From the NCBI GenBank assembly GCA_036257195.1, contig DATAFX010000031.1, positions 1 to 60,547 on the forward strand: DNA of 60,547 nt. Direction: 5' to 3'. A program made the translations under genes and the position numbers. Shown in pieces: positions 2,790 through 59,584 of the stretch (positions are counted from its first letter, which is position 1; each line of letters starts with the position of its first letter). Source of the stretch: Candidatus Methylomirabilota bacterium. Lineage in GTDB: Bacteria > Methylomirabilota > Methylomirabilia > Rokubacteriales > DASRDR01. Under the pieces are notes generated by a model. It had not been told where the DNA came from and searched no databases. It worked only from the letters and a program-made list of their open reading frames with translations.

Positions 2790-4424
2790 TCAGGACCGTG
2801 CGGCCCGCCCTGCCTCCTCCTGCCGGAGCTCCACCCTGCGGAGCTTGCCCGTCTCCGTGTGCGGCAACGCGGGGACGAACGCGACATGGCGCGGATACTT
2901 GTAGGGAGCGAGTTCCTTCTTGACGTGGTCCTGGAGCTCCTTCACCAGCTCGTCCGTGGCCGTGTACCCCGGGCGGAGGACGACGAACGCCTTCGGCACG
3001 AAGCCGCGCGTCGCGTCCGGCGCCGCCACCACGGCCGACTCGGCGACGGCCGGGTGCTCGTCCAGCACGTGCTCGACTTCCGGTCCCGGGATCTTGTAGC
3101 CGCCGGTCACGATCATGTCGTCGGACCGGCACTGGTACGTGAAGTAGTCCTCGTCGTCGTGGACGTAGATGTCGCCCGTCACGTTCCAGCCTCCGAACCG
3201 CACGTACTCGGCTTGCCGCTCGGGCTTTCGCCAATACTTGCAGCCGGTCGGACCCTTGACGGCGATGAGCCCCGGGGTGCCGCGCGGCACCTCGCGCCCT
3301 TCCTCGTCGACGACGCGGCAGTCGTAGCCCGGCACCGGCACGCCGGTCGCTCCCGGCCGGACCCGGCCGGCCACGGACGAGACGAAGATGTGGAACATCT
3401 CGGTCGACCCGATGCCATCGAGGCACTCGCGGCCGGTTGCGGCGACCCACGCCTCGTAGGTGGCCGCGGGCAGGGGCTCGGCGGCCGAGACGCAGAGCCG
3501 GACGCTCCCGAGGTCGAACCGCCGGGGCATGTCCGGCACGCCAAGCATGAGGCGGTAGGACGTGGACGCGCAGAAGGCGACCGTCACCCGCTGGCGCTGG
3601 AACACGTCGAGCATCCGCTCCGGGTCGAACGGGCCCGACAGGACCGTCGCCGCGCCGAACCGGAAGGGGAACACGAGAAGGCCGCCGGTGCCGAAGGTGA
3701 AGGCGAGCGTCGGGTGGCCGCCGAACCGGTCCTCCTCGCTGGGACGAAGCACGTGGCGGGCGTAGGAGTCGGCGGATCCCAGGATGTCCCTGTGCTGGTG
3801 GACGCACCCCTTGGGCACGCCGGTCGAGCCCGACGTGTAGGCGATCATCGCCACGTCGTCCGCCCGGGTGTCCGCCGTCTGGAACCGCTCCGGCTGGCCG
3901 TCCAGCAAGCTGCCCCACGCCGTGTCGCCGGCCTCGGCCTCGCCGACGACCACGAGCCGCTCGAGGACGGGCGCGGCCGGGCGGGCGCGCTCGAGCTCCT
4001 CCCGCAGCCCGCTCGAGACCACGGCGACCCGCGTCCCCGCGTCCTCGGCGATGTAGGCCAGCTCGCGGGCGCGGAGGAGCGGCATCGTCGAGACCGTCAC
4101 GACGCCGAGCTTCTGGCACGCGAGCCAGGTGACGATGAACTCCGGGCAGTTCGGCATCCGGAGGAGGACCCGGTCCCCGCGGTCGATCCCGGCGGCCCGG
4201 AGTCCGTTGGCCAGCCGGTTGACCCGCTTCTGGAGCTCGCCGTACGTGAGGACCTGGTCCTGGTGGACGATGGCCGGCCGGCCGGCGCGTCCCCCGTCGG
4301 CATTGGCGTCGAGGAGAGCCGTCGCCACGTTGAGCCGGACCGGATAACGCGTCTCGGGGAGCGCGTAGATCCGCTCTGGCCAGAGCGCCTTCGGCGGGAG
4401 ACCTTCCTCGATCGCGACCGCCAC
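2790..4424 (-). CDS. aryl-CoA ligase (benzoate / 2-aminobenzoate-CoA ligase-like, AMP-forming)
   Basis: AMP-binding motifs YTSGSTGVPKGCVH, GYKIPGPEVE and TETGKLRR. N-terminal region LPPKALWPERIYALPETRYPVRLNVATALLD resembles aryl-CoA ligases. Start set at GTG 4424 because AGGAGG lies 6 nt upstream; the ORF track start at 4523 is possible. Confidence 0.85.
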   Translation of the reverse strand: MAVAIEEGLPPKALWPERIYALPETRYPVRLNVATALLDANADGGRAGRPAIVHQDQVLTYGELQKRVNRLANGLRAAGIDRGDRVLLRMPNCPEFIVTWLACQKLGVVTVSTMPLLRARELAYIAEDAGTRVAVVSSGLREELERARPAAPVLERLVVVGEAEAGDTAWGSLLDGQPERFQTADTRADDVAMIAYTSGSTGVPKGCVHQHRDILGSADSYARHVLRPSEEDRFGGHPTLAFTFGTGGLLVFPFRFGAATVLSGPFDPERMLDVFQRQRVTVAFCASTSYRLMLGVPDMPRRFDLGSVRLCVSAAEPLPAATYEAWVAATGRECLDGIGSTEMFHIFVSSVAGRVRPGATGVPVPGYDCRVVDEEGREVPRGTPGLIAVKGPTGCKYWRKPERQAEYVRFGGWNVTGDIYVHDDEDYFTYQCRSDDMIVTGGYKIPGPEVEHVLDEHPAVAESAVVAAPDATRGFVPKAFVVLRPGYTATDELVKELQDHVKKELAPYKYPRHVAFVPALPHTETGKLRRVELRQEEAGRAARS

Positions 4425-4655
4425 CCAGAGCCTCCTGTGTCCGGAGTCAGACACCCGCGCGGCGCAATGGTAGCCAACTTCTCTGTGGGGAACAACCGGC
4501 CGATGGGGCTCGCGCGCCGCCATCCTGGCCGGCCGCCGGCGGGGGATGGCTCGGAACTCGTGATCGACCGGTGGCCCTGGCCGGCCGGCTGGTTCCGGGC
4601 TAGGCTGCCACGGGCCGACCGGTCCACGGGGTCGAGCCGCGGAGGTGAGTGCGAG

Positions 4656-5444
4656 ATGGCCGCCAAGTTCGGCGCGCGCGAGGTCGCGCGGCTCGAGACC
4701 GTCTACGCGTCACCGGCGATCGCCTTCCAGCGCGCGCGGATGCGCGCCGCGCTCGGGGTGCGCCCCGGCGAGCGGGGCCTCGACGTCGGCTGCGGGCCGG
4801 CGCTCCTCGCCGTGGAGCTCGGCTGTGAGGTCGGGTCGACGGGGCGCATCGTCGGCCTCGACGAGAGCCCGGAGATGCTGGCGGCGGCCCGCGCTCGAAT
4901 CGCCCGCGAAGGCCTGGCGGATCGGGTCGAAGTCCGAGAAGGGGACGCGGCCCGGCTCGACCTCCCGGCTGCTTCGTTCGATTTCGTTACCGCGGCGCAG
5001 GTCTACCTGTATGTCCCTGAGATCGAGGGCGCACTGGCGGAGGCGGCCCGCGTGCTCCGCCCGGGCGGCCGCCTGGCCATCGTCGATACCGACTGGGACT
5101 CCTGCGTGTGGCTCACGGCCGATCGCGAGCGGCATCGCCGCGTGATGGAGGCGCGCCTCGGGCACTTCGCCCAGCGGCACCTGCCGCCCCGGTTGCCGGG
5201 GCTCCTGACCCGCGCCGGCCTCCGTCTCACGCACACCGAGGCGATTCCGGTCCTCGAGCTCGAGGGCGGGTCTGACACGTTCGGCGGCGGGCTGATCGAG
5301 TCGACCGCCGACCTCGCCGTTCGGTACGGCGTCCCGCGCGAGGAGGCCGAGGCGTGGAAGGCCGACCTCCTGGCCCGCGCGGCCGGCGGGGAGTACTTCT
5401 TCAGCCTGACGCGCTACCTCTTCCTGGCGACCCGCCCGGGCTGA
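4656..5444 (+). CDS. class I SAM-dependent methyltransferase
   Basis: GLDVGCGPALLA (motif I) and RPGGRLAIVD. ATG 4656 is preceded by GGAGG (4641-4645). The 1036-aa ORF-track entry is a spurious N-terminal extension. Confidence 0.8.
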   Translation: MAAKFGAREVARLETVYASPAIAFQRARMRAALGVRPGERGLDVGCGPALLAVELGCEVGSTGRIVGLDESPEMLAAARARIAREGLADRVEVREGDAARLDLPAASFDFVTAAQVYLYVPEIEGALAEAARVLRPGGRLAIVDTDWDSCVWLTADRERHRRVMEARLGHFAQRHLPPRLPGLLTRAGLRLTHTEAIPVLELEGGSDTFGGGLIESTADLAVRYGVPREEAEAWKADLLARAAGGEYFFSLTRYLFLATRPG

Positions 5445-6709: not shown

Positions 6710-7444
6710 TCACTCCCGGGTGAGGAAGCCCTCGGTCATCGCGTTGACCTCCGGGATGCCAGTGCGGGCGATGGCGTTGATCCGCGCCTTGACCTCGGCG
6801 AGCGGCCGGAACGGCTTGGCCAGGAGCCGCTCGGCATGCTCGCGCACCGCGGCGGCCAGCCGGTCTCGTGCGACCACGCGATGGACGAGGCCCATCGCCT
6901 GCGCCTCGGCGGCCGTGTACCGCCGGCCTTCCATGATGATCTCCTTCGCACGAGCGGGACCGACCAGGCGGACAAACCGCGTCGTCGACGCCACGCCGAG
7001 GGGGACGCCCAGGTCGACCTCGGGGATCCAGAGCTCTGCCTCGGCGGCGGCCCACCGGAAGTCGCACGCGAGCGTGAGCCCGAATCCGCCGCCGACCGCG
7101 TGACCGTTGACCATCGCGATCGTCGTCTGCTCCAGGTTCTCGAGCAGCGCGGTGACCCGCTCGAAGAGGCGCCGGAACTGGTTGGGCGTCGAGAGAAAGA
7201 CCGTTCGTCGCTCCTCGGCAGACATCCCGCTCCGGCCCGGGTAGTGCGCACCCGCCGAGAACACCGGCGGCGCGCCGGTGACGATCACGACGCGCGAGCT
7301 GGCGTCGTCCCGGAGGGCCCCCAGCACCTCGATCAGCTCGCCGAGCATCTCGTCGCTGAGCGAGTTCCGCCGGTCCGGCCGGTTGAGCGTGACGGTCGCG
7401 ATGGGGCCGGCGTGGACGAGGGCGACGTTGGTGCCGGCCGCCAC
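6710..7444 (-). CDS. enoyl-CoA hydratase/isomerase (crotonase) family protein
   Basis: 244 aa with crotonase-like sequence (VVIVTGAPPVFSAGAH..., MVNGHAVGGGFGLTLACD). Confidence 0.85.
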   Translation of the reverse strand: MAAGTNVALVHAGPIATVTLNRPDRRNSLSDEMLGELIEVLGALRDDASSRVVIVTGAPPVFSAGAHYPGRSGMSAEERRTVFLSTPNQFRRLFERVTALLENLEQTTIAMVNGHAVGGGFGLTLACDFRWAAAEAELWIPEVDLGVPLGVASTTRFVRLVGPARAKEIIMEGRRYTAAEAQAMGLVHRVVARDRLAAAVREHAERLLAKPFRPLAEVKARINAIARTGIPEVNAMTEGFLTRE

Positions 7445-7445
7445 G

Positions 7446-7733
7446 CTAGACCCCCTCCACGAAGACGACGTTCGTGCGCGCGGCCGCGAGGCGCATCGCC
7501 TTCGGCTCCCGGTACTCCTCCGAGTCGTACCAGCGCCGGGCCTCCGCGAGGCTCGGGAACTCGAGCACGACGAGACGCCGCGGGCGCCAGCTTCCCTCCA
7601 CGACCTCGTGCTCGCCGCCGCGGACCAGGAAGCGGCCGCCGTACGCGGCCACGGTCGCGGGCACCCGCTGCCGGTACTCGGCGTAGCGGGCGGGATCGGT
7701 CACCTCGAGATCGGCGATGACGTACGCGGCCAT
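7446..7733 (-). CDS. DUF1330 family protein
   Basis: 95 aa from ATG 7733: MAAYVIADLEVTDPARYAEYRQ...GGRFLVRGGEHEVVEGSW...LEFPSLAEARRWYDSEEY. First gene of a tightly spaced DUF1330-crotonase-CoA-transferase operon. Confidence 0.75.
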   Translation of the reverse strand: MAAYVIADLEVTDPARYAEYRQRVPATVAAYGGRFLVRGGEHEVVEGSWRPRRLVVLEFPSLAEARRWYDSEEYREPKAMRLAAARTNVVFVEGV

Positions 7734-7965
7734 TGGCGTCCTCCGGGCTCGTGCGCCGGACCCTCGCTCCATCGGGCGTGGCGCGCCCCACCGGCCCGGC
7801 CGGCCGCCGGCATGGTAGCCCGGGTGGGACGCCCGGCGCCAGGCGCACTCTTCCGCCGAGAACCGCTCCCCCTCGGCGTGGCGCCGGGAGATGCGCGCGA
7901 CGCGGCGGGACGAGCGGGCCGGGCGTTCCGCTGCTCTGGCCCCGGCAGGCGGGCGCGGTCGGGCG

Positions 7966-8589
7966 CTAGCCCTCGCCCCTCGACCGGAGGCGCGCCGAGA
8001 CCATCCACTCCTTGCCCTGGCGGCCCTCGGGAGAGGCGAAGGGGACATAGTCCTCGACCAGCTCGAAGCGCGGGGCCAGGAGCCCGCGGACCTCCGCCTC
8101 GCCCACGGCAAACGGGGGTCCCCCCACGCGCTCTCCCATGGGAAAGAAGCAGGCGAGGAGCCATCCGCCCGGCTTCAGGATCGCCGCGAGCACCTCGACG
8201 TACTCCGGCCGACGCCCAGGATCGATCGCGCAGAACGAGGTGTACTCCCACACTCCATCGAAGAAGCGAGGATAGGCCTCGGCGAGCCCGAACACGTCCC
8301 GCTCCTCGAAGGTCACCTCCACTCCCTCCCGCTGGGCAAGCTCGCGCGCCGCGCGGACGACCTCCGGGACGAAGTCGAAGCCGAAGACTCGGAACCCGCG
8401 CCGCGCCAGGAACCGGGCGTCGTGACCGCGGCCGCAGCCGGGGACGGCCACGATGCCCCGGGGCAGGGGGTGGCGCGCCAGGTGAGCGCCGAGCGAGGGG
8501 TTCGGCCGGCCGAGCTCCCAGCGGTCGCTCCCCTGGTCGTAGAGCCCCTGCCAGAACTCGGGATCGCTGACCGTGGGACCGGTCGTCAC
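7966..8589 (-). CDS. thiopurine S-methyltransferase (TPMT)-like SAM methyltransferase
   Basis: FWQGLYDQGSDRWELGRPNP, VPGCGRGHDARFLA and FDGVWEYTSFCAIDP resemble TPMT / halide-thiol methyltransferases. Confidence 0.75.
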   Translation of the reverse strand: MTTGPTVSDPEFWQGLYDQGSDRWELGRPNPSLGAHLARHPLPRGIVAVPGCGRGHDARFLARRGFRVFGFDFVPEVVRAARELAQREGVEVTFEERDVFGLAEAYPRFFDGVWEYTSFCAIDPGRRPEYVEVLAAILKPGGWLLACFFPMGERVGGPPFAVGEAEVRGLLAPRFELVEDYVPFASPEGRQGKEWMVSARLRSRGEG

Positions 8590-27150: not shown

Positions 27151-28673
27151 TCAGCGAATCCACCGGAGCCAGGCTCCGAGCGCCGCGCGCGCGAAGGGCG
27201 TGAGACGCGTCCGCTGGTACTGATCGGCGAGGTGGCGCACCGCCTCGGCTTGTGTCGGGTAGGGGTGGATCACGCCCGCCAGCCGGCCGAGCCCGATCCC
27301 CGCCGTCATGGCGAGCGTCAGCTCGCCGACCATCTCCCCCGCGTGGGGGGCGACGATGGTGGCGCCGACGATCCGCCCGGTCCCGCGCCGCAGGTGCACC
27401 TTGACGAATCCCTCCGTCTCGCCGTCGGTGCGCGCGCGGTCCACGTCGCCGAGGTGGCGTACCAGCGTGTTGAACGCGACCCCACGATCGCGCGTCTCGC
27501 GCTCGGTCCAGCCGACGTGGGCTACCTCCGGGTCCGTGTAGGTGCACCGCGGCATCACCAGCCGGCTCGCCCGGCGCCGGCCGGCCGCCCCGAAGAGCGC
27601 GTTCTGGACGACGATCCGCGCAGCCGCGCTGGCGGCGTGGGTGAACTTCCAGCGGAGGCACACGTCCCCGGCAGCGTAGATGCGCGAATTCGTCGTGCGC
27701 AGGTGGTCGTCCACGACGACGCCCTCGCGGGTCGAGCGCACGCCCGCCGCCTCGAGCCCCATGCCCTCGACGTTCGGCACGCGCCCGGTGGCGACGAGGA
27801 TCTCGTCGGCCGCAACGACGTCGTCCGGTCCGCTCGCGCGGTACCGCAGGACCTTTCGGCCGCCCTCGCGCGCGACGCTCGCGATCGTGGCGCCGAGGAC
27901 CAGCCGCACCCCGTCCCGGAGGAGCGCCTGCCGGACGACCTCGGCCGCGTCCGGATCCTCGCGCGGCAGGAGCTGCGGGACGTCACTCAGGAGCGTCACC
28001 TCGGCGCCGAGACGGCAGAAAGCCTGGGCCAGCTCGCAGCCGATCGGACCGCCGCCCACGACCGCCAGGTGGCTGGGCCGCTCGGTCAGGTCGAAGACCG
28101 ACTCGCTGGTGAGGAAGCCCGCCTCGGCGAGACCCGGGATCGGCGGGTGCCCGGGTCGCGCTCCGGTGGCGATGACGGCTCTCGCGAAGCGGAGCGTCCG
28201 CCCGTCGACTGCGAGGGCGTCTGGTCCGGTGAACGCGGCCTCGCCCAGGAAGACGTCGACGCCGAGCTCCCGACTGAAGCGCCACGCCGAGTCGTGGGGG
28301 CTGATCTCGGCGCGGACCCGGCGCATCCGCTCCATGACGGCGCCGAAATCGACCGCCGTCCCGCCGGGGACCTTCACGCCGAACGCCGCCGCGTCTCGGA
28401 GCTCGCCGATGACGCGCGAGGAGCGGATCACCGCCTTCGACGGGACGCAGCCCGTGACGAGGCAGTCGCCGCCCATGAAGTGGCGCTCGACCAGGGCCAC
28501 CCGGGCGCCGAGGCCTGCCGCGCCGGCGGCGGTGACGAGGCCGGCCGTCCCGGCGCCCACCACCACGAGGTGGTACCGGCGCGCTGGCTGGGGGTTCCGC
28601 CAGCCGGGCGGGTGGACGTTCTGGACGAGCGTGCGGTTGTGGACGTCGTCGGGAACGAGGCGGGGCGGGGGAC

Positions 28674-28677
<4 letters not shown>
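27151..28677 (-). CDS. flavoprotein disulfide reductase (MerA/Lpd-like) lacking an HMA domain and a C-terminal Cys pair
   Basis: HLVVVGAGTAGL, redox-active GGDCLVTGCVPSK, C-terminal HPYPTQAE. GTG 28677 overlaps the radical SAM stop (GTGA). Confidence 0.85.
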
Positions 28678-29782
<1,105 letters not shown>

Positions 29783-29786
<4 letters not shown>

Positions 29787-30121
29787 TGCGCCATCCCCGC
29801 GTGCCGCGCGTGCTCGAGCATCTGGACGCCGTGGACCAGAGACGCCCCGCCCCGGATGGCCGAGGCCACGTGGACGGCTTCCGTCATCTGCTCGACGTCG
29901 GCGCCCTTCTCGAGGCACGCTCTCGTGTACGCGTCGATGCAGTAAGGGCACTGGACGGCGTGCGCCACCCCCAGCGCGATGAGCGCCTTCTCGCGCTCAC
30001 CGAGCGCGCCCTCGGCGAACACCGCGTTGTACCAGGCGAAGAATTTCTCGGCGAGCTCCGGGTTCCCCTGGGCGATGGTCCCGAACTTCCCGAGGTGCTC
30101 GGGCGCGTAGTAGCTCTCCAT
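29783..30121 (-). CDS. AhpD/carboxymuconolactone decarboxylase-fold CxxC protein (peroxidase-like partner of ArsS-type genes)
   Basis: 112 aa with ALIALGVAHAVQCPYCIDAY (CxxC). Confidence 0.8.
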
Positions 30122-30233: not shown

Positions 30234-31754
30234 TCAGGATTCTCGCTCCGACTCGGCCGGTGGCCGCCAGGACGGGGGCGCCAGGCGGCGCCGTCCGTCG
30301 CTGGCCAGCCTGACTCCCGGGTCGCTCGGGTCGAGCTCCCGGTCCCACAGCTTACAGGTGACCTGCTTGTGCCGTTGGTCGAGACCCTCGCAGTAGTTCG
30401 TGAACTCGCAGCGACGGACGAGATGGCCGTAGCCGAGGCGGACCTTTCGGAACCAGTCCGGGTCGGCGAGGGTCTGGCGCGCGGCGGCCACGATGTCCGC
30501 CTCCTCACGGACGAGGATCCCCTCCGCCTGGTCGAAGGTCGAGACCCCGCCGCTCGTGACGACTGGGACCCGGTACCCCGATGCCCTGAGACGCGCCCGG
30601 ATGGCGGCCGCCAGTGGCACGTTTCGGCCGAACGGACCGCGCGCGTCCGAGATGACGGTGGGCATGCATTCGTATCCCGATTCCCCGGTGTAGGGGTAGA
30701 CCGCCTCCCCGATCTTGGGCTGCCGCGCATCCTCGAAGCGACCGCCCTTCGACACCGAGAGGTAGTCGGCGCCGCCTTCCGCGAAGCGAAGCCCGAACCA
30801 GACCGCGTCGTGGACGTCGTTGCCGCCCGCCACGACGTCGTGGCCCAGGTAGCGGATCCCCACCACGTAGTCGGCGCCGACGCGGCTCCGGACCGTGTGG
30901 AGCACCTCGAGGGGCAGCCGGGCCCGCTCCGGACGCGCCCCGCCGTAGCCGTCCGTCCGGCGATTCATTCGCGAGAGGAACGAGGCCATCGTGTACGCGT
31001 GGGCGTAGTGGAGCTCGACGCCGTCGAAGCCCGCCTCTCGCGCTCGCTCGGCGGCGTCGGCGAACAGGCCGGGCAGAACCCGTGGCAGGTCGCGCACGTG
31101 CGGCAGGTGCAGGTCGCCGATCCGCTCGCGGTATCCGTAGTCGAGCGATTCCAGCTCGCGCGCGGTGAGAACGGCCTCGACGAGGGCGCGATCGGCCTCG
31201 GCCAGTCGGGCGCGCACCAGGGCGTCCGGCGCCGCGCTCACGTCGTGCCAGTGCGCCTCGCCGAGCGCCTCGGCCAGGCGCCCCCGGAGATCGCTCCCGA
31301 TCTCGAGGTAGCGCGTGAAATACGTCCTCGGCTCCGGCCGGCGCCGGACCGCGATGAAGTCGAGGATCTGGATGAAGAGGCGCGTGTGCCCCTCGCTTCG
31401 CTCCCGCACGGCCTCGACCAGGCGGCGGAGCCCCGGAACGAAGCGGTCGCTCCCGATGCGGAGGAGCGGTCCGCTCGGTACGTCGCGGATGCCCGTTGCC
31501 TCCACCACCAGCACGCCGGGCTGTCCCTCGGCGAAGCGGGCGTACCACTCGAGCACCTCGGGCGTGACGTGTCCGTCCTCGGTCGCCCGCCAGGGGACCA
31601 TGGCCGGCACCCAGGTGCGGTCGGCCGCCTCGCAGCGGGGGCCCAGGCGGATCGGCGAGAACCAACGCGCCTGCCGAGCCTCCTCGCGGGTCGGCCACCG
31701 CGCCGGGAGGAGCGGGTGTCGGACACGGAGCCGGGACGGCGGCGCGACGGCCAC
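30234..31754 (-). CDS. Old Yellow Enzyme-like NADH:flavin oxidoreductase with internal insertion and C-terminal Cys motif
   Basis: GFDGVELHYAHAYTMASFLSRMNRRTDGYGG and ADIVAAARQTLADPDW. C-terminal CEFTNYCEGLDQRHKQVTC. Confidence 0.8.
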   Translation of the reverse strand: MAVAPPSRLRVRHPLLPARWPTREEARQARWFSPIRLGPRCEAADRTWVPAMVPWRATEDGHVTPEVLEWYARFAEGQPGVLVVEATGIRDVPSGPLLRIGSDRFVPGLRRLVEAVRERSEGHTRLFIQILDFIAVRRRPEPRTYFTRYLEIGSDLRGRLAEALGEAHWHDVSAAPDALVRARLAEADRALVEAVLTARELESLDYGYRERIGDLHLPHVRDLPRVLPGLFADAAERAREAGFDGVELHYAHAYTMASFLSRMNRRTDGYGGARPERARLPLEVLHTVRSRVGADYVVGIRYLGHDVVAGGNDVHDAVWFGLRFAEGGADYLSVSKGGRFEDARQPKIGEAVYPYTGESGYECMPTVISDARGPFGRNVPLAAAIRARLRASGYRVPVVTSGGVSTFDQAEGILVREEADIVAAARQTLADPDWFRKVRLGYGHLVRRCEFTNYCEGLDQRHKQVTCKLWDRELDPSDPGVRLASDGRRRLAPPSWRPPAESERES

Positions 31755-31836
31755 GGGGTCAGCTTACCCCGGGGCCGGACCGGGCAGCCACTCGCGCGCA
31801 TCGGTTGGTTGACCACGAAACGGCGCGGGTGCTACG

Positions 31837-33177
31837 GTGCGGCCTGTGCGCGTGAAATCGGCCCGCAGGGGACCACGGCCCGCGCGCTCCGACCGAGGCC
31901 GCCGCGGGCCGCGACGCTGGCCGGCCCTGATGGCCGGGGTCGCCGCGATTCTGACGGCCACCCTGGCCGGGGGCTGCGGACTCGGCATGAGCGCGAAGCC
32001 GGGGGACGAGACGAAGGCGCCGCCCGATTCCCCCGTCGCCGTTCGCCAGGAAATGGATCTCCTCCGAGCCGATCTCGCCGAGATCCGCACGCGCGTGGAG
32101 GGGGTGCAGCGTGCCAACACCGAGCACGCGGACCGCGTCGCGAAGGAGACCCGTGCGGAGTTCGATGCCGTCCAGAAGGCGATGGAGGCATCGTCTCGAC
32201 ACGACCTCCAGCGCCAGGTCGAGGTGCTCGACGCCCAATCCCGGCGCATCGACCTCTTGGAGCGCCGCACCGCCGAGCTGGGTCAGGCGCTGCGCCGAGT
32301 CGAGCTGAGCTTGACCGGACTCGAGAACCAGCTGACCCGGGTTCTCGACTCCGCGGCCACGCCGTCGCCGGCGGCCCGGGGTGGCGCGCCCGCGCGACCT
32401 CCGGCCGCGTCAGCAGGGCCGCGTGCCGTCGAAGAGCCCTCGCCGGCGGCGCCCCCGCCGGAAAGTTCCATGTCCGGCGCCGCGGCAGGGGCCGGTCTCA
32501 CGCCGCCCGCGATGCTCGGGCCTTCGCGGAACGCCAAGAGTCCGGCGGCGCCGGCGTTGCCGAAGGCGGAACCCTCGGGCCAGCCACGCGCGGACGCCGC
32601 GCCGACGGCGACGCCGCGGACCGACGCGCCTCGCGAGGCGAAAGCCGCGCCGCCGGGCCGACCGGCGCCGGACGACGTCGCGCGGGTGGCGAAGGCGGCT
32701 CCGCCCGCCGAGGCCAAGCCGACCGCCCCGGAGCCCTCGGCGGGAGCGACGCCGCCGCGCTCCGTCAAGCCCAGCGCGTCCGCGGCGGGGCCCGCGACGG
32801 GCTCACCGTCCGCTCGCGGCCTCTTCGACCGCGCGATGGAGAGCTGGAACAAGGGAGAGCACGGGCAGGCCGTGCTCGACTTCGAGGAGCTCGTCCAGAA
32901 GTTCCCGTCGGACCCGCTCGCGGCGTCGGCCCAGTTCCGGATCGGTGAGGCGTACTATGCCGCGCGCGACTTTGAGCGCGCAGCGCTAGAGTATCGGAAG
33001 GCCGTCGAGCTCGCCCCGAAGAGCAAGGACACGCCCCAGGCTCTCCTCCGCCTCGGCCTCGCGTATCGCGCCCAGAAGCGGGAGTCCGACGCGCGGCAGG
33101 TCTGGAACCAGCTCGTCCGCGATTTCCCGGAGAGCGACGCCACCGAGGAGGCGCGCCGCGCCTTGCGTGGGCGCTGA
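31837..33177 (+). CDS. YbgF/CpoB-like protein: signal/lipobox, coiled coil, ~200-aa Pro/Ala-rich linker, C-terminal TPR domain
   Basis: LTATLAGGC lipobox-like. Coiled-coil segment (LERRTAELGQALRRVELSLTGLENQL). C-terminal FDRAMESWNKGEHGQAVLDFEELVQKFPSDPLAASAQFRIGEAYY... The start is uncertain (GTG 31837, 31846 or 31852, or ATG 31930). Confidence 0.65.
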   Translation: MRPVRVKSARRGPRPARSDRGRRGPRRWPALMAGVAAILTATLAGGCGLGMSAKPGDETKAPPDSPVAVRQEMDLLRADLAEIRTRVEGVQRANTEHADRVAKETRAEFDAVQKAMEASSRHDLQRQVEVLDAQSRRIDLLERRTAELGQALRRVELSLTGLENQLTRVLDSAATPSPAARGGAPARPPAASAGPRAVEEPSPAAPPPESSMSGAAAGAGLTPPAMLGPSRNAKSPAAPALPKAEPSGQPRADAAPTATPRTDAPREAKAAPPGRPAPDDVARVAKAAPPAEAKPTAPEPSAGATPPRSVKPSASAAGPATGSPSARGLFDRAMESWNKGEHGQAVLDFEELVQKFPSDPLAASAQFRIGEAYYAARDFERAALEYRKAVELAPKSKDTPQALLRLGLAYRAQKRESDARQVWNQLVRDFPESDATEEARRALRGR

Positions 33178-33219
33178 CCGTCTGGCCGAGACGCGTCAAC
33201 CAGGTCCTCGACCAGTTCA

Positions 33220-34134
33220 ATGGAGTCGGCTGACGACGTTCGAGCGAGTCTCGCCGTGGCCTCCCTCGGTGACCTTCGCCCGCACGAGGCCACGGCCCCG
33301 GAGGGGGAGTCCCAGGTGGCGGACCTCCTCGGGGCGGCGCGCGTCCTGTCGTGGCCGCTCGTCGTCGATGCCGCGTCCGGGCTGATTCTCGACGGCAGCC
33401 ACCGCGCCGTCGTCCTCGCGCGCGACTTCGGCGCGCGCTTCGCCGTGGTCCAGCGGGTGGTCCTCGACGCTCCCGACGTGCGGATCGAGACCTGGTGCCG
33501 GGTGATCGAGGACGTGCCAGGGCCGGCGTTCGACGAGGCGCGCCGGGCGCTCGGACTCGAGGCGGGCGCGCACGGGGGGCTCCGCTGTCACTACGGCGGC
33601 CGCGTCTACGCCCGGGCCGGGTCGGCTTCACCGGAGGCGTACCACCTGCTGGGCGAGCTGGAGCGGCTGCTCGCGTCGAACGGCCGCCCGCGCCGGGCGC
33701 GGGTCGTCGAGGATGAGGCGGCCGCGCCATGGCTGGACGCGGCGGGCGCGGTCGTGCTGCGCCCGCCCGTGCTGGACAAGGCCGCCTTGCGGGAGCGGGC
33801 CCTCGGCGCGCTCCTGCCGCCCAAGTCGACGCGCTTTCTCCTGCCATACCGCGTGCTCGGGCTTCACGTCCCCCTGGCGACCCTCGGCGGTCCGCCGGCC
33901 GCGCTCGTCGCCCAGCTGGAGCGTGAGCGGGCGCAGCCGCTCGTGTGTCTCGGCGACGGGCTCGCCGTCGATCGGCGCTATCCCGAGCGGCTCTGGCAGT
34001 TCGCCGACCACCGCATCCCTGATCGGCTCTTCGCCGACGAGGCGGGACGCCGCGCGTACAAGGACGCGCTCGCGCGGGCGGCCGTCGCGACCGCCTCCGA
34101 GCCCCGCCAACCTCGCCCACGCTCCCCACGCTGA
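33220..34134 (+). CDS. ParB/Srx-fold protein, SerK/SbnI-like (putative free L-serine kinase)
   Basis: LRPHE ... [21 protein letters not shown] ... [16 protein letters not shown] ... [20 protein letters not shown] matches my recollection of the SerK/SbnI pattern. Not database-verified. Confidence 0.55.
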
Positions 34135-34145
34135 AGGAGGCTCCC

Positions 34146-35510
34146 GTGGCCCAGACCAAGTTCCTGCTCGACGAGAAGGACCTGCCGAGTCGCTGGTACA
34201 ACATCCAGGCGGACCTGCCCGCGCCGCTCCCGCCGGTGATCCACCCGGGCACGCTCCAGCCGATCGGGCCCCAGGACCTGGCGCCCCTGTTCCCGATGGA
34301 GATCATCAAGCAGGAGGTCAGCCAGGAGCGCTGGATCGACATCCCCGAGCCCGTGCGCGACGTCTACCGGCTCTGGCGGCCGACGCCGCTCTACCGCGCC
34401 CATAGGCTCGAGAAGGCGCTCGGCACGCCCGCGCGGATCTACTACAAGTGGGAGGGCGTCTCCCCGGCGGGCAGCCACAAGCCGAACACCGCGGTCGCCC
34501 AGGCCTACTACAACCACCAGGAGGGCGTCCGGCGGATCACGACGGAGACGGGCGCGGGGCAGTGGGGCTCGGCCCTCTCCTTCGCGTGCCAGCTGTTCGG
34601 CATCGAGTGCAAGGTCTACATGGTCCGCGTCTCTTACGATCAGAAGCCGTACCGCCGGATCATGATGGAGGCCTGGGGCGGCAAGGTGGTGGCGAGCCCG
34701 TCGCCGGACACGGCTGCCGGCCGCGCGGTGCTCGCAAAGGACCCCCAGTCGCCGGGGAGCCTCGGCATCGCGATCTCGGAGGCGGTGGAGGACGCCGCCC
34801 AGCGCGACGACACGAAATACTCGCTCGGCTCGGTGCTGAACCACGTGCTGACTCACCAGACGGTCATCGGGCTCGAGGCGCAGCGCCAGCTCGAGATGGC
34901 CGGCGACCGCCCGGACATCCTCGTCGGTTGCATCGGAGGCGGCTCGAACTTCGGCGGCTTCACGTTCCCGTTCCTCCAGGACAAGCTCAGTGGAAAGCGG
35001 AAGAATCTCCGCGTCATCGCCGTCGAGCCCCAGGCGGCGCCCAGCCTCACCCGGGGGGAGTACGTCTACGACTTCGGTGACACCGGGCAGATGACGCCGC
35101 TGGTCAAGATGTACACGCTCGGTCACTCCTTCATCCCGGCGCCGATCCACGCCGGCGGGCTCCGGTATCACGGGATGGCGCCCCTCGTCTGCGCCCTCTA
35201 CGACGGGAAGGTGATCGAGGCGGTGGCGGTCCACCAGAACCCGACCTTCGAGGCGGCGCTCACGTTCGCCCGGACCGAGGGCGTGCTGCCGGCGCCCGAG
35301 GCCGCCCACGCCATCCGCGTCGTCATCGACGAGGCGCTGCGCTGCAAGGCCTCCGGGGAGCGGAAGGTGATCGCGTTCAACCTGTGCGGTCACGGCCACT
35401 TCGACCTGTCGGCGTACGAGCGCCACATGGCGGGCAAGCTCGAGGACTTCGAGTACCCGGCGGAGAAGGTGAAGGCGGCGCTGGCCGGGCTGCCGAAGGT
35501 CAAGGTGTGA
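34146..35510 (+). CDS. trpB2: TrpB-like PLP-dependent enzyme, TrpB2 class
   Basis: [79 protein letters not shown] lies upstream of GTG 34146, 11 nt after the preceding gene. Confidence 0.9.
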
Positions 35511-35550
35511 GATCCGCGTAGTCCGGGGTCGGCTCCTGGTGTAGGTTCGA

Positions 35551-35569
35551 GTCCCCGCCTCACGGGGAC
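35551..35569 (+). terminator. GC-rich hairpin downstream of trpB2 (7-bp stem, 5-nt loop, no U-tract)
   Basis: GTCCCCG-CCTCA-CGGGGAC. Confidence 0.3.
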
Positions 35570-35593
35570 CTGGCCGCTCGGACTGGAGGCAGC

Positions 35594-36588
35594 ATGCTGA
35601 CCGATATGCTGTGGCGGCCATCACCCTCGCGGTCTTCAGCGCCCCGCTGGCTGTCGAGCCTCAGTCGCCCCCGAAGCCAGGCCGGCTTGGCCTCCTCTAC
35701 GACAGCACCCCGGCATTCGCCCCGGACACCGACTTCATCGATGGCGCCATCGCGGAAGGGCTGCGCAATCAGGGCTACGTCGTGGGCCAGAACCTCGTGG
35801 TCGAGTTCCGGAGCGCACTGACCAGGCAGGATCGCTATCCTACTCTGGCGGCCGAGCTGGTCAGGGCGGGCGTCGATGTCATCGTCACGGGAACCGAGCC
35901 TGGGGTGAGGGCGGCCCGGGACGCGAGCCGCACGATCCCGATCGTGATGGCCGGTGCCTCCATCGACCCCGTGGCTGCGGGCCTCATCGCCAGCCTGGCG
36001 CCCGGGTGGCAACATCACCGGCGTTACTTTGGGGGACCTCGCCGCCAAGCGCCTGGAACTGCTCGAGAGACGCTTCCGGGGCTCCGGTCGGTCGCCGCCG
36101 TCCACGGGGATCCCAATGTCCCGTTCGTCGCCCAGTGGCTCCACGCCACCGAGGCGGCGGCCCGCCGGCTCGGGTTGACCCTCCATCCTGTTCTGTTCCT
36201 TGGCCAGGATGCTGGGCACTGGGACCAGGTGTTCGCTAGCGTGGCGCGACGTCCGGTCGGCGCGGTCACGATCCACGAGGCCCCCCGCTTCGAGATGCAC
36301 CATCAGGTCTTGGCGGACCTGGCGTTGAAGCATCGACTCCCGATGGTCTTCACCTTCCGGAACCAGGCCGAGGCGGGAGGCTTGATGGCCTACTCGGCCG
36401 ATGAACCGGAGATCTGGCGCCGCGCAGGCAACCTCGTGGCTAGGATCCTCAAGGGCGCTCGACCGGCGGATCTCCCTGTCGAGGAGCCGACCCTATACCA
36501 GTTCGCGGTCAACCTCCGGACCGCGAAGGCCCTCGGGCTCACGATCCCGCCGTCGGTGCTCGCCCGAGCGACCGAGCTCATCCAGTGA
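35594..36588 (+). pseudogene. ABC-transporter substrate-binding protein (ABC_sub_bind type) with internal compensating frameshifts and a damaged 5' end
   Basis: The body (frame of 35611) is paralogous to 51111-52094. The conserved RPGGNITGVTLGDLAAKRLELL block is encoded in the +1 frame between about 36000 and 36066. The SD plus ATG at 35594 is in a third frame relationship to the body. Confidence 0.5.
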
Positions 36589-36913: not shown

Positions 36914-37041
36914 GGTTCTGGGGCAACTCCGCGGTCGTGCCGCTCCTGGCCACAGACCGGTCGGCGCCGTGGTCGACCGGGACCGGGGTGGCGCGGACGA
37001 GATCGGAGCGTCACAGCCCACCCTGCCTCGGTGGCCCTTGA
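36910..37041 (+). pseudogene. truncated VapC-like (PIN) toxin remnant
   Basis: GTG overlaps the antitoxin stop (GTGA). VRFWGNSAVVPLLATD resembles the start of VapC toxins paired with Phd-type antitoxins. The ORF stops after 43 codons, inside the -35 of the next cassette. Confidence 0.4.
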
Positions 37042-37073
37042 CGACCGCTCCTTGATGCCATATACATATGGCA
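37038..37073 (+). promoter_or_regulatory. sigma70-like promoter (TTGACG-17 nt-TATACA) overlapped by an AT-rich palindrome TGCCATAT-AC-ATATGGCA; likely operator for the RHH antitoxin
   Basis: -35 at 37038-37043, -10 at 37061-37066, palindrome at 37056-37073 ending in the ATG. No SD is present, which implies a leaderless transcript. Confidence 0.45.
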
Positions 37074-37312
37074 TGACCAAGGTGACCCGGACGACGGTGT
37101 ACCTCGACCGCGCCGACTACGAGCGGCTCAAGGTCATGGCCCGGGCGCGCCGCCGGCCGCCGGCCGCGCTGATCCGCGAGGCGGTGGCGGAGTACGCGCG
37201 CCGGCACGGCGGGCGCCGCCTTCCGAAGAGCGTGGGGGTCGGGCGGAGCGGGCGAGGGGACCTGAGCGAGCGGGCGGAGGAGCTGTTGGCGGGGATGGGC
37301 CGCTCCTCGTGA
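37073..37312 (+). CDS. vapB: ribbon-helix-helix (CopG/VapB-type) antitoxin
   Basis: MTKVTRTTVYLDRADYERLKVMARARRRPPAALIREAVAEYA. Confidence 0.75.
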   Translation: MTKVTRTTVYLDRADYERLKVMARARRRPPAALIREAVAEYARRHGGRRLPKSVGVGRSGRGDLSERAEELLAGMGRSS

Positions 37313-37722
37313 TCGTCGCCGACACGGGTGCGGTGCTCGCCCTGATCGATGCCGACGACGGTCATCACGAGACCCTCACCGCCGCGTTCCGCGAGGACCC
37401 CTCGTCCTGGGTCGTGCCCTGGGCCGTCTTGCCCGAGGTGGACTACCTCTTGGGGGCGCACCTGGGCTCGCGTGCCCAGGACGCGTTCCTCTCCGACCTG
37501 GGTCGCGGGGAATGGGTGGTGGACTGGGGCGGAGAGGCGGACCTCCGGCGGGCGAACGAGATCGCGACACGCTACCGGACGCTGCGTCTCGGGCTGGTCG
37601 ACGCCGCGGTCATCGCAGCGGCCGAGCGGCTGCGGGCTTCGGCGATCGCCACGCTGGATCTCCGGCACTTCGGCGCCGTCGCGATCCGGGGGCGCCCGCG
37701 TCTGATCCCACGCGATCTCTGA
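37309..37722 (+). CDS. vapC: PIN-domain toxin VapC
   Basis: VIVADTGAVLALIDADD ... LPEVDYLL ... GLVDAAVIAAAERL ... TLDLRHF. GTGA overlap with the antitoxin gene. Confidence 0.85.
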   Translation: MIVADTGAVLALIDADDGHHETLTAAFREDPSSWVVPWAVLPEVDYLLGAHLGSRAQDAFLSDLGRGEWVVDWGGEADLRRANEIATRYRTLRLGLVDAAVIAAAERLRASAIATLDLRHFGAVAIRGRPRLIPRDL

Positions 37723-57435: not shown

Positions 57436-57673
57436 CCGAGCGATAGCCACGGCCGAAGAGGAACCTCGCTTGCGACCGTAAGTGGCCAGTTTCACTCACC
57501 ATGTGATCCATCGCCGCGCTTCCGGCCCGCCTGGCACGGCCGTTGCCCCCATCGCCGCCCATGATCGAGCGCGGGCTCCGGCTGGAGGTCCTCGGCAGCG
57601 AGCCACTCCCCCCGGGTGGGACCCGGGCCGTGGGCCGGCGGGTCTCGCGTGCGACGGCCTCGGGATCCACCCG

Positions 57674-59584
57674 GTGAGCCCCGACGGCCTCCGCGAGGCG
57701 CTTCTCGAGGCTGCGCTGCACTACGCGCGGCGGGGCTGGCCCGTGCTGCCGCTCCACAGCGTCCGCGCCGGCCGCTGCTCGTGCCCCCGGGACTGCGGCC
57801 GCCCCGCCGGCAAGCATCCCCGCACCCCGAACGGGGTCATGGACGCGAGCGCCGACGAAGCGGTGATCCGGGCCTGGTGGGAGCGGTGGCCGGACGCGAA
57901 TCTCGGCGTGGCCACCGGACTGGCCAGCGGCCTCTTCGTTCTGGACGTCGACCCGGCCCACGGCGGGGATGAATCGCTCGAGATCCTGGTCGCCCGTCAC
58001 GGGGCCCCGCCCGGAGGGCCGATCTCCCACACCGGCGGCGGGGGGCGGCATCTGCTGTTCGCGCATCCCGGATTCCGCGTGCCTTCGCGGTCCGGCGCGC
58101 TTGGCTCCGGGCTCGATGTGCGGAGCGACGGCGGCTACATCGTCGCGCCGCCGAGCCAGCATCGCTCGGGTCGCCTCTACGAGTGGGAGGCTTCGAGCCA
58201 TCCCGACGAGGTCCCGCTCCCCCAGGCGCCGGCGTGGCTCTTGGCGGGCGGGACCACCTCAGGCGACACGCCGAGGCGCCCTCCGGCCTCGCCGCTCGAC
58301 GACACGATCCCCGAGGGGCGCCGCAACGAGGCGCTCACCTCTCTCGCCGGCACGATGCGGTGGCGCGGGATGACGCAGGAGGAGATCCAGGCGGCGCTGG
58401 CCGCGGTCAACGCGCGACGATGCGCCCCGCCGCTCGCCGAGACGGAGGTAGGCGCGATCGCGGCGAGCGTCGGGCGGTACCCGGCGGCGCCCACCCCCGC
58501 CGCCGATCCGCCGCAGACCGACGGGCCGAGCCCGATCGGCTGGCCCCTCTACGATGCCGCGGACGTCTGGGAGTTTCCCCCGCCCGAGCCACTCGTCGAC
58601 GGGCTGCTGCCTCTCCGTGGCGTCGTCTGGTGGGGCGGGCCGCCGAAGCGGGCCAAGAGCCTGCTGCTCCTCTACCTGTGCCTGGCCATCGCCTGTGGCC
58701 GCCCGACGGTGGCAGGGCGCTTTCAAGTGCGCAGCCGGCCGCGGATTCTCTATGTCGCCCGCGAGGACGGCGGCGGTCGGCTCGAGGAACGAAAAGCGGA
58801 CATCATGGCCCCGTGGGGCGTCAGGCCGCCGGCCAAAGCCTTCCAGTGCCTCATTCGGCCCCGACTCGACCTCGGCAACGCCGCGCAGGTTGGCCAGCTT
58901 CGCGAGACGTGCCTGACCCAAGGGGTGACACTGCTCGTGCTGGACACCTGGACCGCGCTGTCCCTGGGGGCGGACCCGCTCTCGGCGCGGGACCAGGCCC
59001 AGCTGGCCGCGACCGTGGTCGAGCTCAGCGACGCGCTCGGCGGCCTGGTCATCGTCGTTGACCACACCCGGAAGAACCGGCTGGAGGGGCAATCCCTGTC
59101 GTCGGCCGACATCCACGGACCCTACGTCAAATGGGCCGCCGCCGAGCACATCGTGATGCAAGACATCGCGGCTGGCCACCCCCGCCGCTTCGAGGTCTTC
59201 GTCGAGGGGAAGGACCTGGAAGCCAACCGCTTCTTCCTCGATGTGAGTCCCCGCGGCAGCGGAGAGGAGAAGTTTGTCTGTTCCGGGACCGCGGCCGAGC
59301 TGGCCGCGGCCCGGCAGGAGCTCGGCGACGAGAACCGCCGGGCGGTGCTCGAGGTCCTGCAGGCTTCCGCGGATCCCCTCGGCCCCGAGGAGGTGCTTGC
59401 GGGCTTGCGTCGCGGCGGGCGCCCGCTTGGGGGGGCGACCATCCGGCGGCACCTGGCCGCCCTTCTCCGGGCCGGGGCCGTCGAGCGAGCCGGGCACGGC
59501 AACCGGACGGTGTACCTGGCGCGCCGGGGGAGCGATCGCTCTGCCCAGGGGTCATCCGAGCGGCACGACGAACGGAGTCGGTGA
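57674..59584 (+). CDS. bifunctional DNA primase/polymerase (Prim-Pol) - PriCT - RepA/RecA-like ATPase - winged-helix fusion protein
   Basis: YARRGWPVLPL...GKHPRTPNG...LFVLDVDPAHGG...GGGRHLLF...DVRSDGGYIVAPPSQHRSGRLYEW (Prim-Pol). IPEGRRNEALTSLAGTMRWRGM (PriCT). GGPPKRAKSLLLL and LLVLDTW (Walker A-like and B). C-terminal RRAVLEVL...IRRHLAALLRAGAV (wHTH). Start set at GTG 57674; the ORF track starts at 57482. Confidence 0.8.
   Translation: MSPDGLREALLEAALHYARRGWPVLPLHSVRAGRCSCPRDCGRPAGKHPRTPNGVMDASADEAVIRAWWERWPDANLGVATGLASGLFVLDVDPAHGGDESLEILVARHGAPPGGPISHTGGGGRHLLFAHPGFRVPSRSGALGSGLDVRSDGGYIVAPPSQHRSGRLYEWEASSHPDEVPLPQAPAWLLAGGTTSGDTPRRPPASPLDDTIPEGRRNEALTSLAGTMRWRGMTQEEIQAALAAVNARRCAPPLAETEVGAIAASVGRYPAAPTPAADPPQTDGPSPIGWPLYDAADVWEFPPPEPLVDGLLPLRGVVWWGGPPKRAKSLLLLYLCLAIACGRPTVAGRFQVRSRPRILYVAREDGGGRLEERKADIMAPWGVRPPAKAFQCLIRPRLDLGNAAQVGQLRETCLTQGVTLLVLDTWTALSLGADPLSARDQAQLAATVVELSDALGGLVIVVDHTRKNRLEGQSLSSADIHGPYVKWAAAEHIVMQDIAAGHPRRFEVFVEGKDLEANRFFLDVSPRGSGEEKFVCSGTAAELAAARQELGDENRRAVLEVLQASADPLGPEEVLAGLRRGGRPLGGATIRRHLAALLRAGAVERAGHGNRTVYLARRGSDRSAQGSSERHDERSR

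Follow-up and report, generated by a model that had tools for sequence, protein, structure and literature searches.

A SerK/SbnI-like gene preceding trpB2 in Rokubacteria suggests an accessory route of serine activation for tryptophan synthesis

Enzymes of the TrpB2 class are widespread and prefer O-phospho-L-serine (OPS) in vitro, and we know of no accepted answer as to the reason for this preference or the source of OPS in vivo. The question is raised anew by a locus in a 60,547-nucleotide stretch of DNA from a Rokubacteria-group soil bacterium (contig DATAFX010000031.1; hereafter the window, GC content 72%), where the gene for a protein of 304 amino acids (aa) that resembles free serine kinases lies immediately upstream of the gene for a TrpB2-class enzyme dependent on pyridoxal phosphate (PLP). 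Does the product of the first gene feed that of the second? Sequence comparison and structure prediction suggest that the two genes form an undescribed and dispensable unit that would activate serine for tryptophan synthesis. Our preferred reading, which we hold tentatively and place a little short of an even chance, is that of a co-translated operon in which a free serine kinase supplies OPS to TrpB2 for tryptophan formation.

The two genes lie on the forward (+) strand. The first (33220-34134, +) starts with ATG, ends with a TGA stop codon at 34132-34134 and encodes a putative free L-serine kinase; the second (34146-35510, +) starts with GTG and encodes the TrpB2-class enzyme of 454 aa. The 11-nt spacer between them contains a Shine-Dalgarno (SD) sequence, AGGAGG (34135-34140, +), 5 nt before the GTG. 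An earlier note on this DNA, made from the sequence alone, had placed both open reading frames (ORFs) and their 11-nt separation at exactly these coordinates; it had quoted the SD sequence as AAGGAGG, of which AGGAGG stands and the first A belongs to the stop codon, as its final base. GC content at third codon positions is 0.90 for the first ORF and 0.96 for the second, coding-type values typical of the genes of this genome. Over the same genome pairs, the median ratio of nonsynonymous to synonymous substitution rates (dN/dS) is 0.33 for the kinase-like gene versus 0.083 for TrpB2, indicating purifying selection on both. Because composition is coding-type, homologues are many and selection is purifying, we consider both ORFs real genes rather than chance. 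Selection on the kinase-like gene is purifying but relaxed, which would fit an accessory role. Upstream, a gene encoding tetratricopeptide repeats (TPR) lies on the same strand, 42 nt from the kinase-like gene, and the two may be co-transcribed.

To what family does the 304-aa protein belong? It has no match in Pfam, including none to ParBc or to a helix-turn-helix (HTH) domain, and a phmmer search of the PDB returned chance matches only (ribosomal protein L31e, a K+ channel). Its 89 cluster-level homologues are all unnamed or labeled 'hypothetical protein', and none carries a Pfam domain. Among NCBIfam models, SerK (NF053625) scored 15.2 bits (E 0.009; cut-off 380) and SbnI (NF033589) 11 bits (E 0.19; cut-off 350). 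A family profile of 32 homologues (alignment A1) found significant PDB matches only in SerK (1VK1, 5X0B and its mutants) and SbnI (5UJE, 5UJD, 6NR6), with E values of 4e-7 to 1.6e-4 and with profile positions of about 15-221 aligned to chain residues of about 22-240, nearly the full length. An AlphaFold2 model based on A1 reached a pLDDT of 91.6 and a pTM of 0.88. By Foldseek, its nine best PDB matches are all SbnI or SerK (E 5e-14 to 2e-9), with 233-252 aligned columns, template-modelling (TM) scores of 0.66-0.77 when normalised to the target, and both domains covered. Ranks 10-26 (Atu1540, Noc, ParB, sulfiredoxin) align over only about 75-87 columns of the N-terminal core at E >0.03, with the ParB and Noc structures at E 0.14-0.43. 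The predicted architecture combines a ParB/sulfiredoxin (Srx)-like nucleotide-binding N-terminal domain with a SerK/SbnI-type C-terminal domain and contains no HTH. By profile and modelled structure, then, the protein is a member of the SerK/SbnI superfamily, and the SerK/SbnI affinity claimed in the earlier note is borne out at that level. Since it scores far below the NCBIfam cut-offs for both kinases, it is a new, divergent and so far unannotated Rokubacteria subfamily rather than an orthologue of either. We ruled out a DNA-binding ParB identity, for which the HTH is missing and only the N-terminal core is matched; the protein groups with the two-domain serine kinases instead, which clears the first of the refuting conditions set in the earlier note.

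The catalytic residues of these kinases have counterparts here. H22 and E23 lie in a 'PHE' motif (33283-33288, +), where E23 aligns with the catalytic glutamate, E30 in SerK and E20 in SbnI; at this column of the A1 profile alignment the SerK E30A and E30Q mutant chains, 5X0E and 5X0J, read PHA and PHQ. D58-G59-S60-H61-R62 (33391-33405, +) form a DGxHR motif, the nucleotide-phosphate motif of the ParB/Srx fold, and D58 aligns with Asp69 of SerK and Asp58 of SbnI; a count along the SbnI chain in the same alignment puts Glu20 at E23 and Asp58 at D58. Further downstream, P200-P-K202-S-T204-R205-F-L-L-P-Y-R211 (33817-33852, +) aligns with SPKTTRHVLPF of SerK and PAGVTRFNISGR of SbnI, and may bind serine or phosphate. 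Residues H22, E23, D58, G59, H61, R62, W92 and R211 are invariant both in A1 and in a broad alignment of 27 sequences reaching down to 25% identity (A2), and P200, K202, T204, R205 and R211 are invariant or nearly so. A C-terminal extension carrying D251-R252-R-Y254-P-E256 (33970-33987, +) is conserved across the broad family (R252 invariant, Y254 and E256 nearly invariant in A2); the extension and its D-R-x-Y-x-E motif are absent from the 242-aa SerK, whose chains stop at about profile position 221. All four motifs quoted in the earlier note are present (LRPHE at 19-23, ILDGSHR at 56-62, further blocks at 77-92 and 200-219), and the SerK/SbnI catalytic residues it named as a check are kept as the invariant E23 and D58. 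In SbnI, Glu20 and Asp58 are both needed for kinase activity (Verstraete 2018, as cited in PMC9641203).

The protein might be no serine kinase at all, acting instead on threonine, homoserine or a small hydroxyl compound, or serving as a nucleotide-binding regulator or scaffold of the ParB fold. Its very low identity to the characterised kinases would allow this, as would the extra C-terminal extension with its invariant arginine; SbnI has a regulatory second role that offers a parallel, partner genes across the superfamily are diverse (ThiS/Urm1 among them), and the ParB fold is functionally versatile (PMC12704722). We nevertheless consider such a role quite unlikely: the model matches SerK and SbnI in both of its domains, neither the catalytic glutamate and aspartate nor the K-x-T-R motif varies, DNA-binding domains, the HTH included, are absent, and the partner genes are repeatedly serine-related (seryl-tRNA synthetase, aminotransferase, TrpB2).

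The identity of the second gene is more straightforward. By its scores against NF009057 (748 bits; cut-off 366) and TIGR01415 (669 bits; cut-off 519), over its full length, the 454-aa protein is clearly a TrpB2, in keeping with the earlier claim; the TrpB1 model TIGR00263 gives 145 bits against a cut-off of 392. Its closest PDB relatives are TrpB2 enzymes of S. solfataricus (6HUL_B, E 3e-137; 4QYS and 6HTE, E of about 4e-114). K112 in SHKPN (34479-34481, +) is the PLP Schiff-base lysine, in register with the GSHK / G(A)HK motif of solved TrpB2 and TrpB1 enzymes. R340 (35163-35165, +) lies in GGLRYHG (residues 337-343), a motif also found in the OPS-bound 4QYS and in 6HTE and 6HUL and kept in 79 of 80 TrpB2 loci; TrpB1 has an aspartate at this position, as in the GLDYPG of LBCA-TrpB and PfTrpB. 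This Asp/Arg position is probably the residue that sets specificity in TrpB2. TrpB2 enzymes are described as OPS-dependent tryptophan synthases with a single specificity residue, and those that have been characterised as binding indole tightly (Busch 2014 for the former; both as cited in PMC11917138).

Whether the nucleophile is indole is a separate matter. At three loci (L058, L060 and L076; TrpB2 at 4001-5350), orthologues 64-68% identical to the window enzyme lie inside trpD-trpC-(TrpB2)-trpF-trpB1-trpA operons, in lineages that co-encode TrpB2 and TrpB1; their position in trp operons lends support to tryptophan formation from indole by this TrpB2 clade. Neighbours of other TrpB2 genes are diverse, some of them trp operons, and no recurrent OPS-producing neighbour was found among them. 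It is conceivable that the kinase makes OPS and TrpB2 joins it to a nucleophile other than indole, yielding a non-proteinogenic amino acid in the manner of SbnA, which uses OPS and glutamate. The pair stands far from any trp gene, among neighbours of acyl-CoA metabolism, and SbnI-SbnA is the closest precedent; among the approximately 37 window ORFs annotated with Pfam, none besides TrpB2 is a trp, ser or cys gene, so that the earlier statement that the window contains no other trp genes holds for these ORFs. Yet the enzyme is 61-77% identical to orthologues in many lineages, some of them in trp operons, its dN/dS of 0.08 is what one expects of a housekeeping enzyme, and tight indole binding is on record for characterised TrpB2s (PMC11917138). 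A non-indole nucleophile is therefore very improbable in our estimate, although it would be compatible with the kinase part of the preferred explanation.

We then asked how constant the pairing is. A one-genome-per-species scan with the kinase-like protein found 12 loci at 51-78% identity, all in metagenome-assembled genomes (MAGs) of Rokubacteria/Methylomirabilota, and four distant relatives at 26-31% identity in Thermofilaceae, Calditenuaceae and a planctomycete. Together with three loci on metagenomic contigs reached from other family members (L022, L023, L025), two found from the TrpB2 side (L030, L031) and the window itself, this makes 18 kinase-bearing loci, all from Rokubacteria, and in every one TrpB2 lies directly downstream. 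Spacers were measured at 16 of the loci and range from 10 to 26 nt; an (A/G)GGAGG-type SD sequence and the start codon are conserved there. Genes on the same strand with a short spacer and a conserved SD sequence bear the signature of a translationally coupled, operon-like pair. In the most divergent pair member (L022, 50% identity) the upstream flank differs, with a Bac_luciferase gene, and the pair is kept; it is the only such case. Two further observations concern individual loci. MAG MFD02242.bin.2.73 holds two copies of the whole neighbourhood, L001 (CAWGVS010000011.1) and L012 (CAWGVS010000005.1), whose kinase-like proteins are 77% and 75% identical to that of the window; either the neighbourhood is truly duplicated or the bin is mixed. 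At L009 the TrpB2 gene (6918-8280) is split between two frames, at 6918-7694 and at 7696-8280, an apparent frameshift that is either an assembly error or a pseudogene.

From these elements a mechanism can be drawn. The 304-aa protein, as a predicted free L-serine kinase, would convert L-serine to OPS at the expense of ATP or ADP; its N-terminal ParB/sulfiredoxin-fold domain would bind the nucleotide through DGSHR, with E23 as the catalytic base, and its C-terminal domain would contribute K-x-T-R to the cleft. TrpB2 would then use OPS as donor of the PLP-bound aminoacrylate, with K112 forming the Schiff base and R340 holding the leaving phosphate, and the aminoacrylate would react with indole to give L-tryptophan. 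So placed, the kinase would be an accessory enzyme that activates serine, an optional side route by which free serine reaches TrpB2. It would not be indispensable, since the SerA/SerC pathway also passes through OPS, and this would explain its losses. Fold, superfamily membership, catalytic residues, TrpB2 identity, gene arrangement and distribution are what the comparisons show; that the protein phosphorylates serine, with which donor, that its OPS reaches TrpB2 and that indole is the acceptor are inferred from them.

Several results weigh against this explanation. The 304-aa protein is only 15-18% identical to SerK and SbnI and, at 15 and 11 bits, falls far under the family cut-offs given above. 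One archaeal SerK-like protein binds CTP and not ATP (PMC12704722), which makes nucleotide use in this fold unpredictable. Constraint on the kinase-like gene is relaxed compared with that on TrpB2. Moreover, the pairing occurs only in a single Rokubacteria clade, whose members share gene order across the entire neighbourhood of about 10 kb: radical SAM/DUF3641, CMD, an oxidoreductase of the old yellow enzyme type, a YbgF-like TPR protein, the pair, an acyl-CoA dehydrogenase and a short-chain dehydrogenase/reductase. Inheritance alone could thus account for the conserved pairing, and because the entire neighbourhood is syntenic, adjacency is weak evidence of coupling; we rejected it as sufficient proof. 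No TrpB2 gene lies within 6 kb of the four distant relatives from the scan, and a pairing with TrpB2 is seen in none of the 11 distant relatives of this protein family.

The reverse comparison adds to this. A metagenome scan starting from TrpB2 yielded 80 loci at 61-95% identity, whose surroundings were searched with hidden Markov models of the narrow and the broad kinase-like family. Only two of the six closest TrpB2 orthologues have the kinase-like gene upstream (L030, 94%; L031, 91%); it is absent at L029 (95%), L032 (90%), L033 (89%) and L034 (88%), and also from all of the approximately 60 TrpB2 loci at 61-77% identity with at least 250 nt of upstream sequence. Conservation of the adjacency, which the earlier note had made a check on its proposal, stands at 18 of 18 loci from the kinase side, and at two of six close and none of about 60 distant loci from the TrpB2 side. 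A kinase-like gene always found with TrpB2, and a TrpB2 often found without it, fit a TrpB2-dependent accessory enzyme.

One of the loci without the gene preserves a trace of it. At L029 the same TPR gene ends at 773 and TrpB2 starts at 859, leaving a spacer of 85 nt that contains ATG GAA TCC GCG GAC CGA TCG TTC CAA CTC TGA (815-847). This reads MESADRSFQL followed by a stop: the opening five codons of the kinase-like gene (MESAD) run on in the same frame into its final ones (compare SRSFER and stop in L012). The mini-ORF is followed by GGGAGG and then by the GTG of a TrpB2 that is 95% identical to that of the window and retains GGLRYHG. The scar indicates that the kinase-like gene is ancestral at this position and was cleanly lost in that lineage, and with the other TrpB2 loci that have no such gene it counts as a further point against the proposal, since TrpB2 evidently works without an adjacent kinase. 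On both grounds we rejected an obligate kinase-TrpB2 module. Of the self-contained OPS module that the earlier note had envisaged, the homology of both proteins holds; a self-contained supply of OPS is weakened as a proposal by the clade-restricted synteny, the TrpB2-side counts and the L029 deletion. Functional coupling of the two genes is plausible, not obligatory.

Much of this evidence would also suit a general serine kinase, one that like archaeal SerK channels serine into 3-phosphoglycerate or provides OPS for cysteine synthesis, and whose place beside TrpB2 is simply inherited gene order. Such a kinase would account for the synteny of the whole neighbourhood in all related genomes, for the many TrpB2 loci that lack the gene and for its deletion at L029, and the archaeal relative in Calditenuaceae (L016, 5998-8074) has a class-V aminotransferase gene downstream, as serK does in the serK-aminotransferase-serA clusters of Desulfurococcales (Makino 2016). 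We regard this explanation as unlikely, since in 18 of 18 loci TrpB2 follows the gene after 10-26 nt and a conserved SD sequence, the pair persists at L022 despite the changed upstream flank, TrpB2 is among the few known OPS-consuming enzymes, and cysteine or serine pathway genes are lacking among the annotated window ORFs.

The wider family offers an independent view of the substrate. An exhaustive profile search returned 1,140 representative clusters at E<=1e-3, 341 at E<=1e-10 and 15 at E<=1e-30. In an intermediate clade (29-33% identity), a full-length seryl-tRNA synthetase (SerRS) gene lies directly downstream in all three loci with enough sequence, L017, L018 and L109; SerK-like and SerRS genes were located together at 469-2774 of L017 (JYleGHeS), where they overlap by 4 nt, at 5001-7257 of L018, at 1200-3440 of L109 and also at 2647-3914 of L110. 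A divergently oriented gene for a PF02441 flavoprotein lies upstream in this clade. For the apparent coupling of a serine-kinase-like enzyme to SerRS we see no obvious explanation. In three archaeal contexts (L020/L021, 5001-6087; L027, 5001-6156; L026, 5001-6138), the SerK-like gene is followed by a ThiS/Urm1-type small sulfur-carrier gene, with overlap in two of them and with ribosomal S17e, thermosome and histone genes among the neighbours; this linkage could mark cysteine synthesis from OPS and a thiocarboxylate, of the CysO/CysM type, or other chemistry. The Thermofilaceae relatives (L013, 4989-9704; L014, 4984-9767) lie between an Asparaginase_2 gene and one for an unknown protein of 490-502 aa, which is followed by a gene resembling cofactor-independent phosphoglycerate mutase, a family suspected to include phosphoserine-using phosphotransferases (GapMind 2026). 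What SerRS, the aminotransferase and ThiS/Urm1 have in common is a link to serine or OPS, which supports the view that the family acts on serine or phosphoserine.

A partner such as SerRS, which consumes serine rather than OPS, raises the thought that the reaction runs backward, from OPS and AMP or ADP to serine and ADP or ATP, or that the enzyme substitutes for SerB, supplying L-serine to TrpB2 and to SerRS. SbnI-like DUF1015 kinases have indeed been proposed as a SerB replacement (GapMind 2026). The reverse direction is thermodynamically unfavourable with ATP according to the same source, SerK and SbnI work physiologically as kinases (Makino 2016; PMC9641203), TrpB2 enzymes prefer OPS (Busch 2014, as cited in PMC11917138) and the TrpB2-specific arginine is conserved here; we would be surprised to see this possibility confirmed. 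Returning to OPS supply for TrpB2, the link to TrpB2 is one lineage-specific wiring among several. We speculate that the kinase may have no other job than to make OPS for TrpB2, and that the protein is one tip of a large, unannotated SerK-like superfamily wired lineage by lineage to consumers of serine or OPS; this stronger version is less likely than not.

The surroundings of the pair in the window are of mixed character. Annotated ORFs belong to acyl-CoA metabolism, oxidoreductases, glycosyltransferases, ABC binding proteins, a VapBC pair and a primase-polymerase. Upstream, on the reverse strand (27151-30121, -), are genes for a pyridine-nucleotide-disulphide oxidoreductase, a radical-SAM protein with DUF3641 and a small CMD protein, a group found upstream in all related genomes. 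A VapB-like/PIN toxin-antitoxin pair (37031-37722) sits between an ABC binding-protein gene and the acyl-CoA dehydrogenase gene; it is present in L010 and absent from most syntenic loci. Close to the window end, a Prim-Pol/AAA_25/PriCT primase-helicase gene (57482-59584) suggests a mobile element. Rfam and tRNA scans of the window found no RNA elements and no tRNA, and no sigma-70 or intrinsic-terminator consensus sites occur in 31600-35800. The 100-nt spacer 3' of TrpB2 (35511-35610) contains a GC-rich hairpin (TCCCCGCCTCACGGGGA) without a T-run, which matches neither Rfam nor the terminator consensus.

What would the pairing mean? A kinase gene that seems coupled to trpB2 suggests a specific origin for the OPS, and two recombinant proteins would suffice to test it. 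If the kinase serves TrpB2 alone, it would provide the first physiological rationale and OPS source for the OPS dependence of TrpB2. If the superfamily is wired as supposed, phosphorylation of free serine would emerge as a widespread and overlooked route of serine activation. Free serine kinases would extend beyond SerK of Thermococcales and Desulfurococcales and staphylococcal SbnI to a large family of 'hypothetical proteins'. The presence/absence polymorphism and the clean scar, a natural knockout lineage, amount to a built-in comparative experiment on the need for the kinase. For the engineering of TrpB towards non-canonical amino acids, a two-enzyme cascade that leads from serine, ATP and indole to tryptophan and has an irreversible leaving group could be of interest too.

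How does the pair compare with known systems? Canonical ParB, Noc and Srx proteins share with the 304-aa protein the N-terminal nucleotide-binding core of about 75-87 residues, at the marginal E values noted above; canonical ParB has an HTH, a GERRxR CTP motif and a C-terminal dimerisation domain, whereas the window protein lacks the HTH and the dimerisation domain and carries DGSHR. The TrpB2 resembles TrpB2a (4QYS) and TrpB2i (6HUL) of S. solfataricus in length, PLP lysine and the arginine of GGLRYHG; the characterised TrpB2 genes are stand-alone or in trp operons, and none is reported with a dedicated serine kinase. Our literature search found no description of TrpB2 paired with a serine kinase or ParB-like protein, the only co-mention of TrpB2 and ParB being in a methanogen transcriptome study; the earlier note had likewise been aware of no such description; a 2025 survey of the ParB-CTPase fold covers SerK and SbnI with no mention of TrpB or PLP enzymes (PMC12704722).

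The closest parallels are the two serine kinases. SerK of T. kodakarensis (TK0378; also PF0380), an ADP-dependent enzyme, has the same two-domain fold as the model (target-normalised TM 0.66-0.72) and matching positions throughout: Glu30 and E23, DGHHR and DGSHR, W102 and W92, SPKTTRH and PPKSTRF, the SbnI counterpart of the last being PAGVTRF. It differs in its archaeal rather than bacterial host, in an identity of only 17-18%, in lacking the C-terminal extension of about 60 aa, and in being linked to serA or aminotransferase genes and not to TrpB2; clear-cut SerK homologues have been reported as absent from bacteria (Makino 2016). In Thermococcus, OPS from SerK feeds CysK, a PLP enzyme of fold type II, to which TrpB2 would be the counterpart here. 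SbnI, the best structural match (5UJE, E 5e-14), keeps Glu20 and Asp58 where the window protein has E23 and D58, and with SbnA it places a ParB-fold serine kinase and a fold-type-II PLP beta-replacement enzyme in one cluster, that for staphyloferrin B in S. aureus. The window protein differs from SbnI in its low identity (15-18%), in its length (304 aa versus 254 aa) and its distinct DRxYxE C-terminal motif, in having TrpB2 and not SbnA as partner, outside any siderophore context, and in showing no evidence of the heme-responsive DNA-binding role. A kinase feeding a fold-type-II PLP enzyme is thus already known from SbnI-SbnA and SerK-CysK; TrpB2 as the partner would be new.

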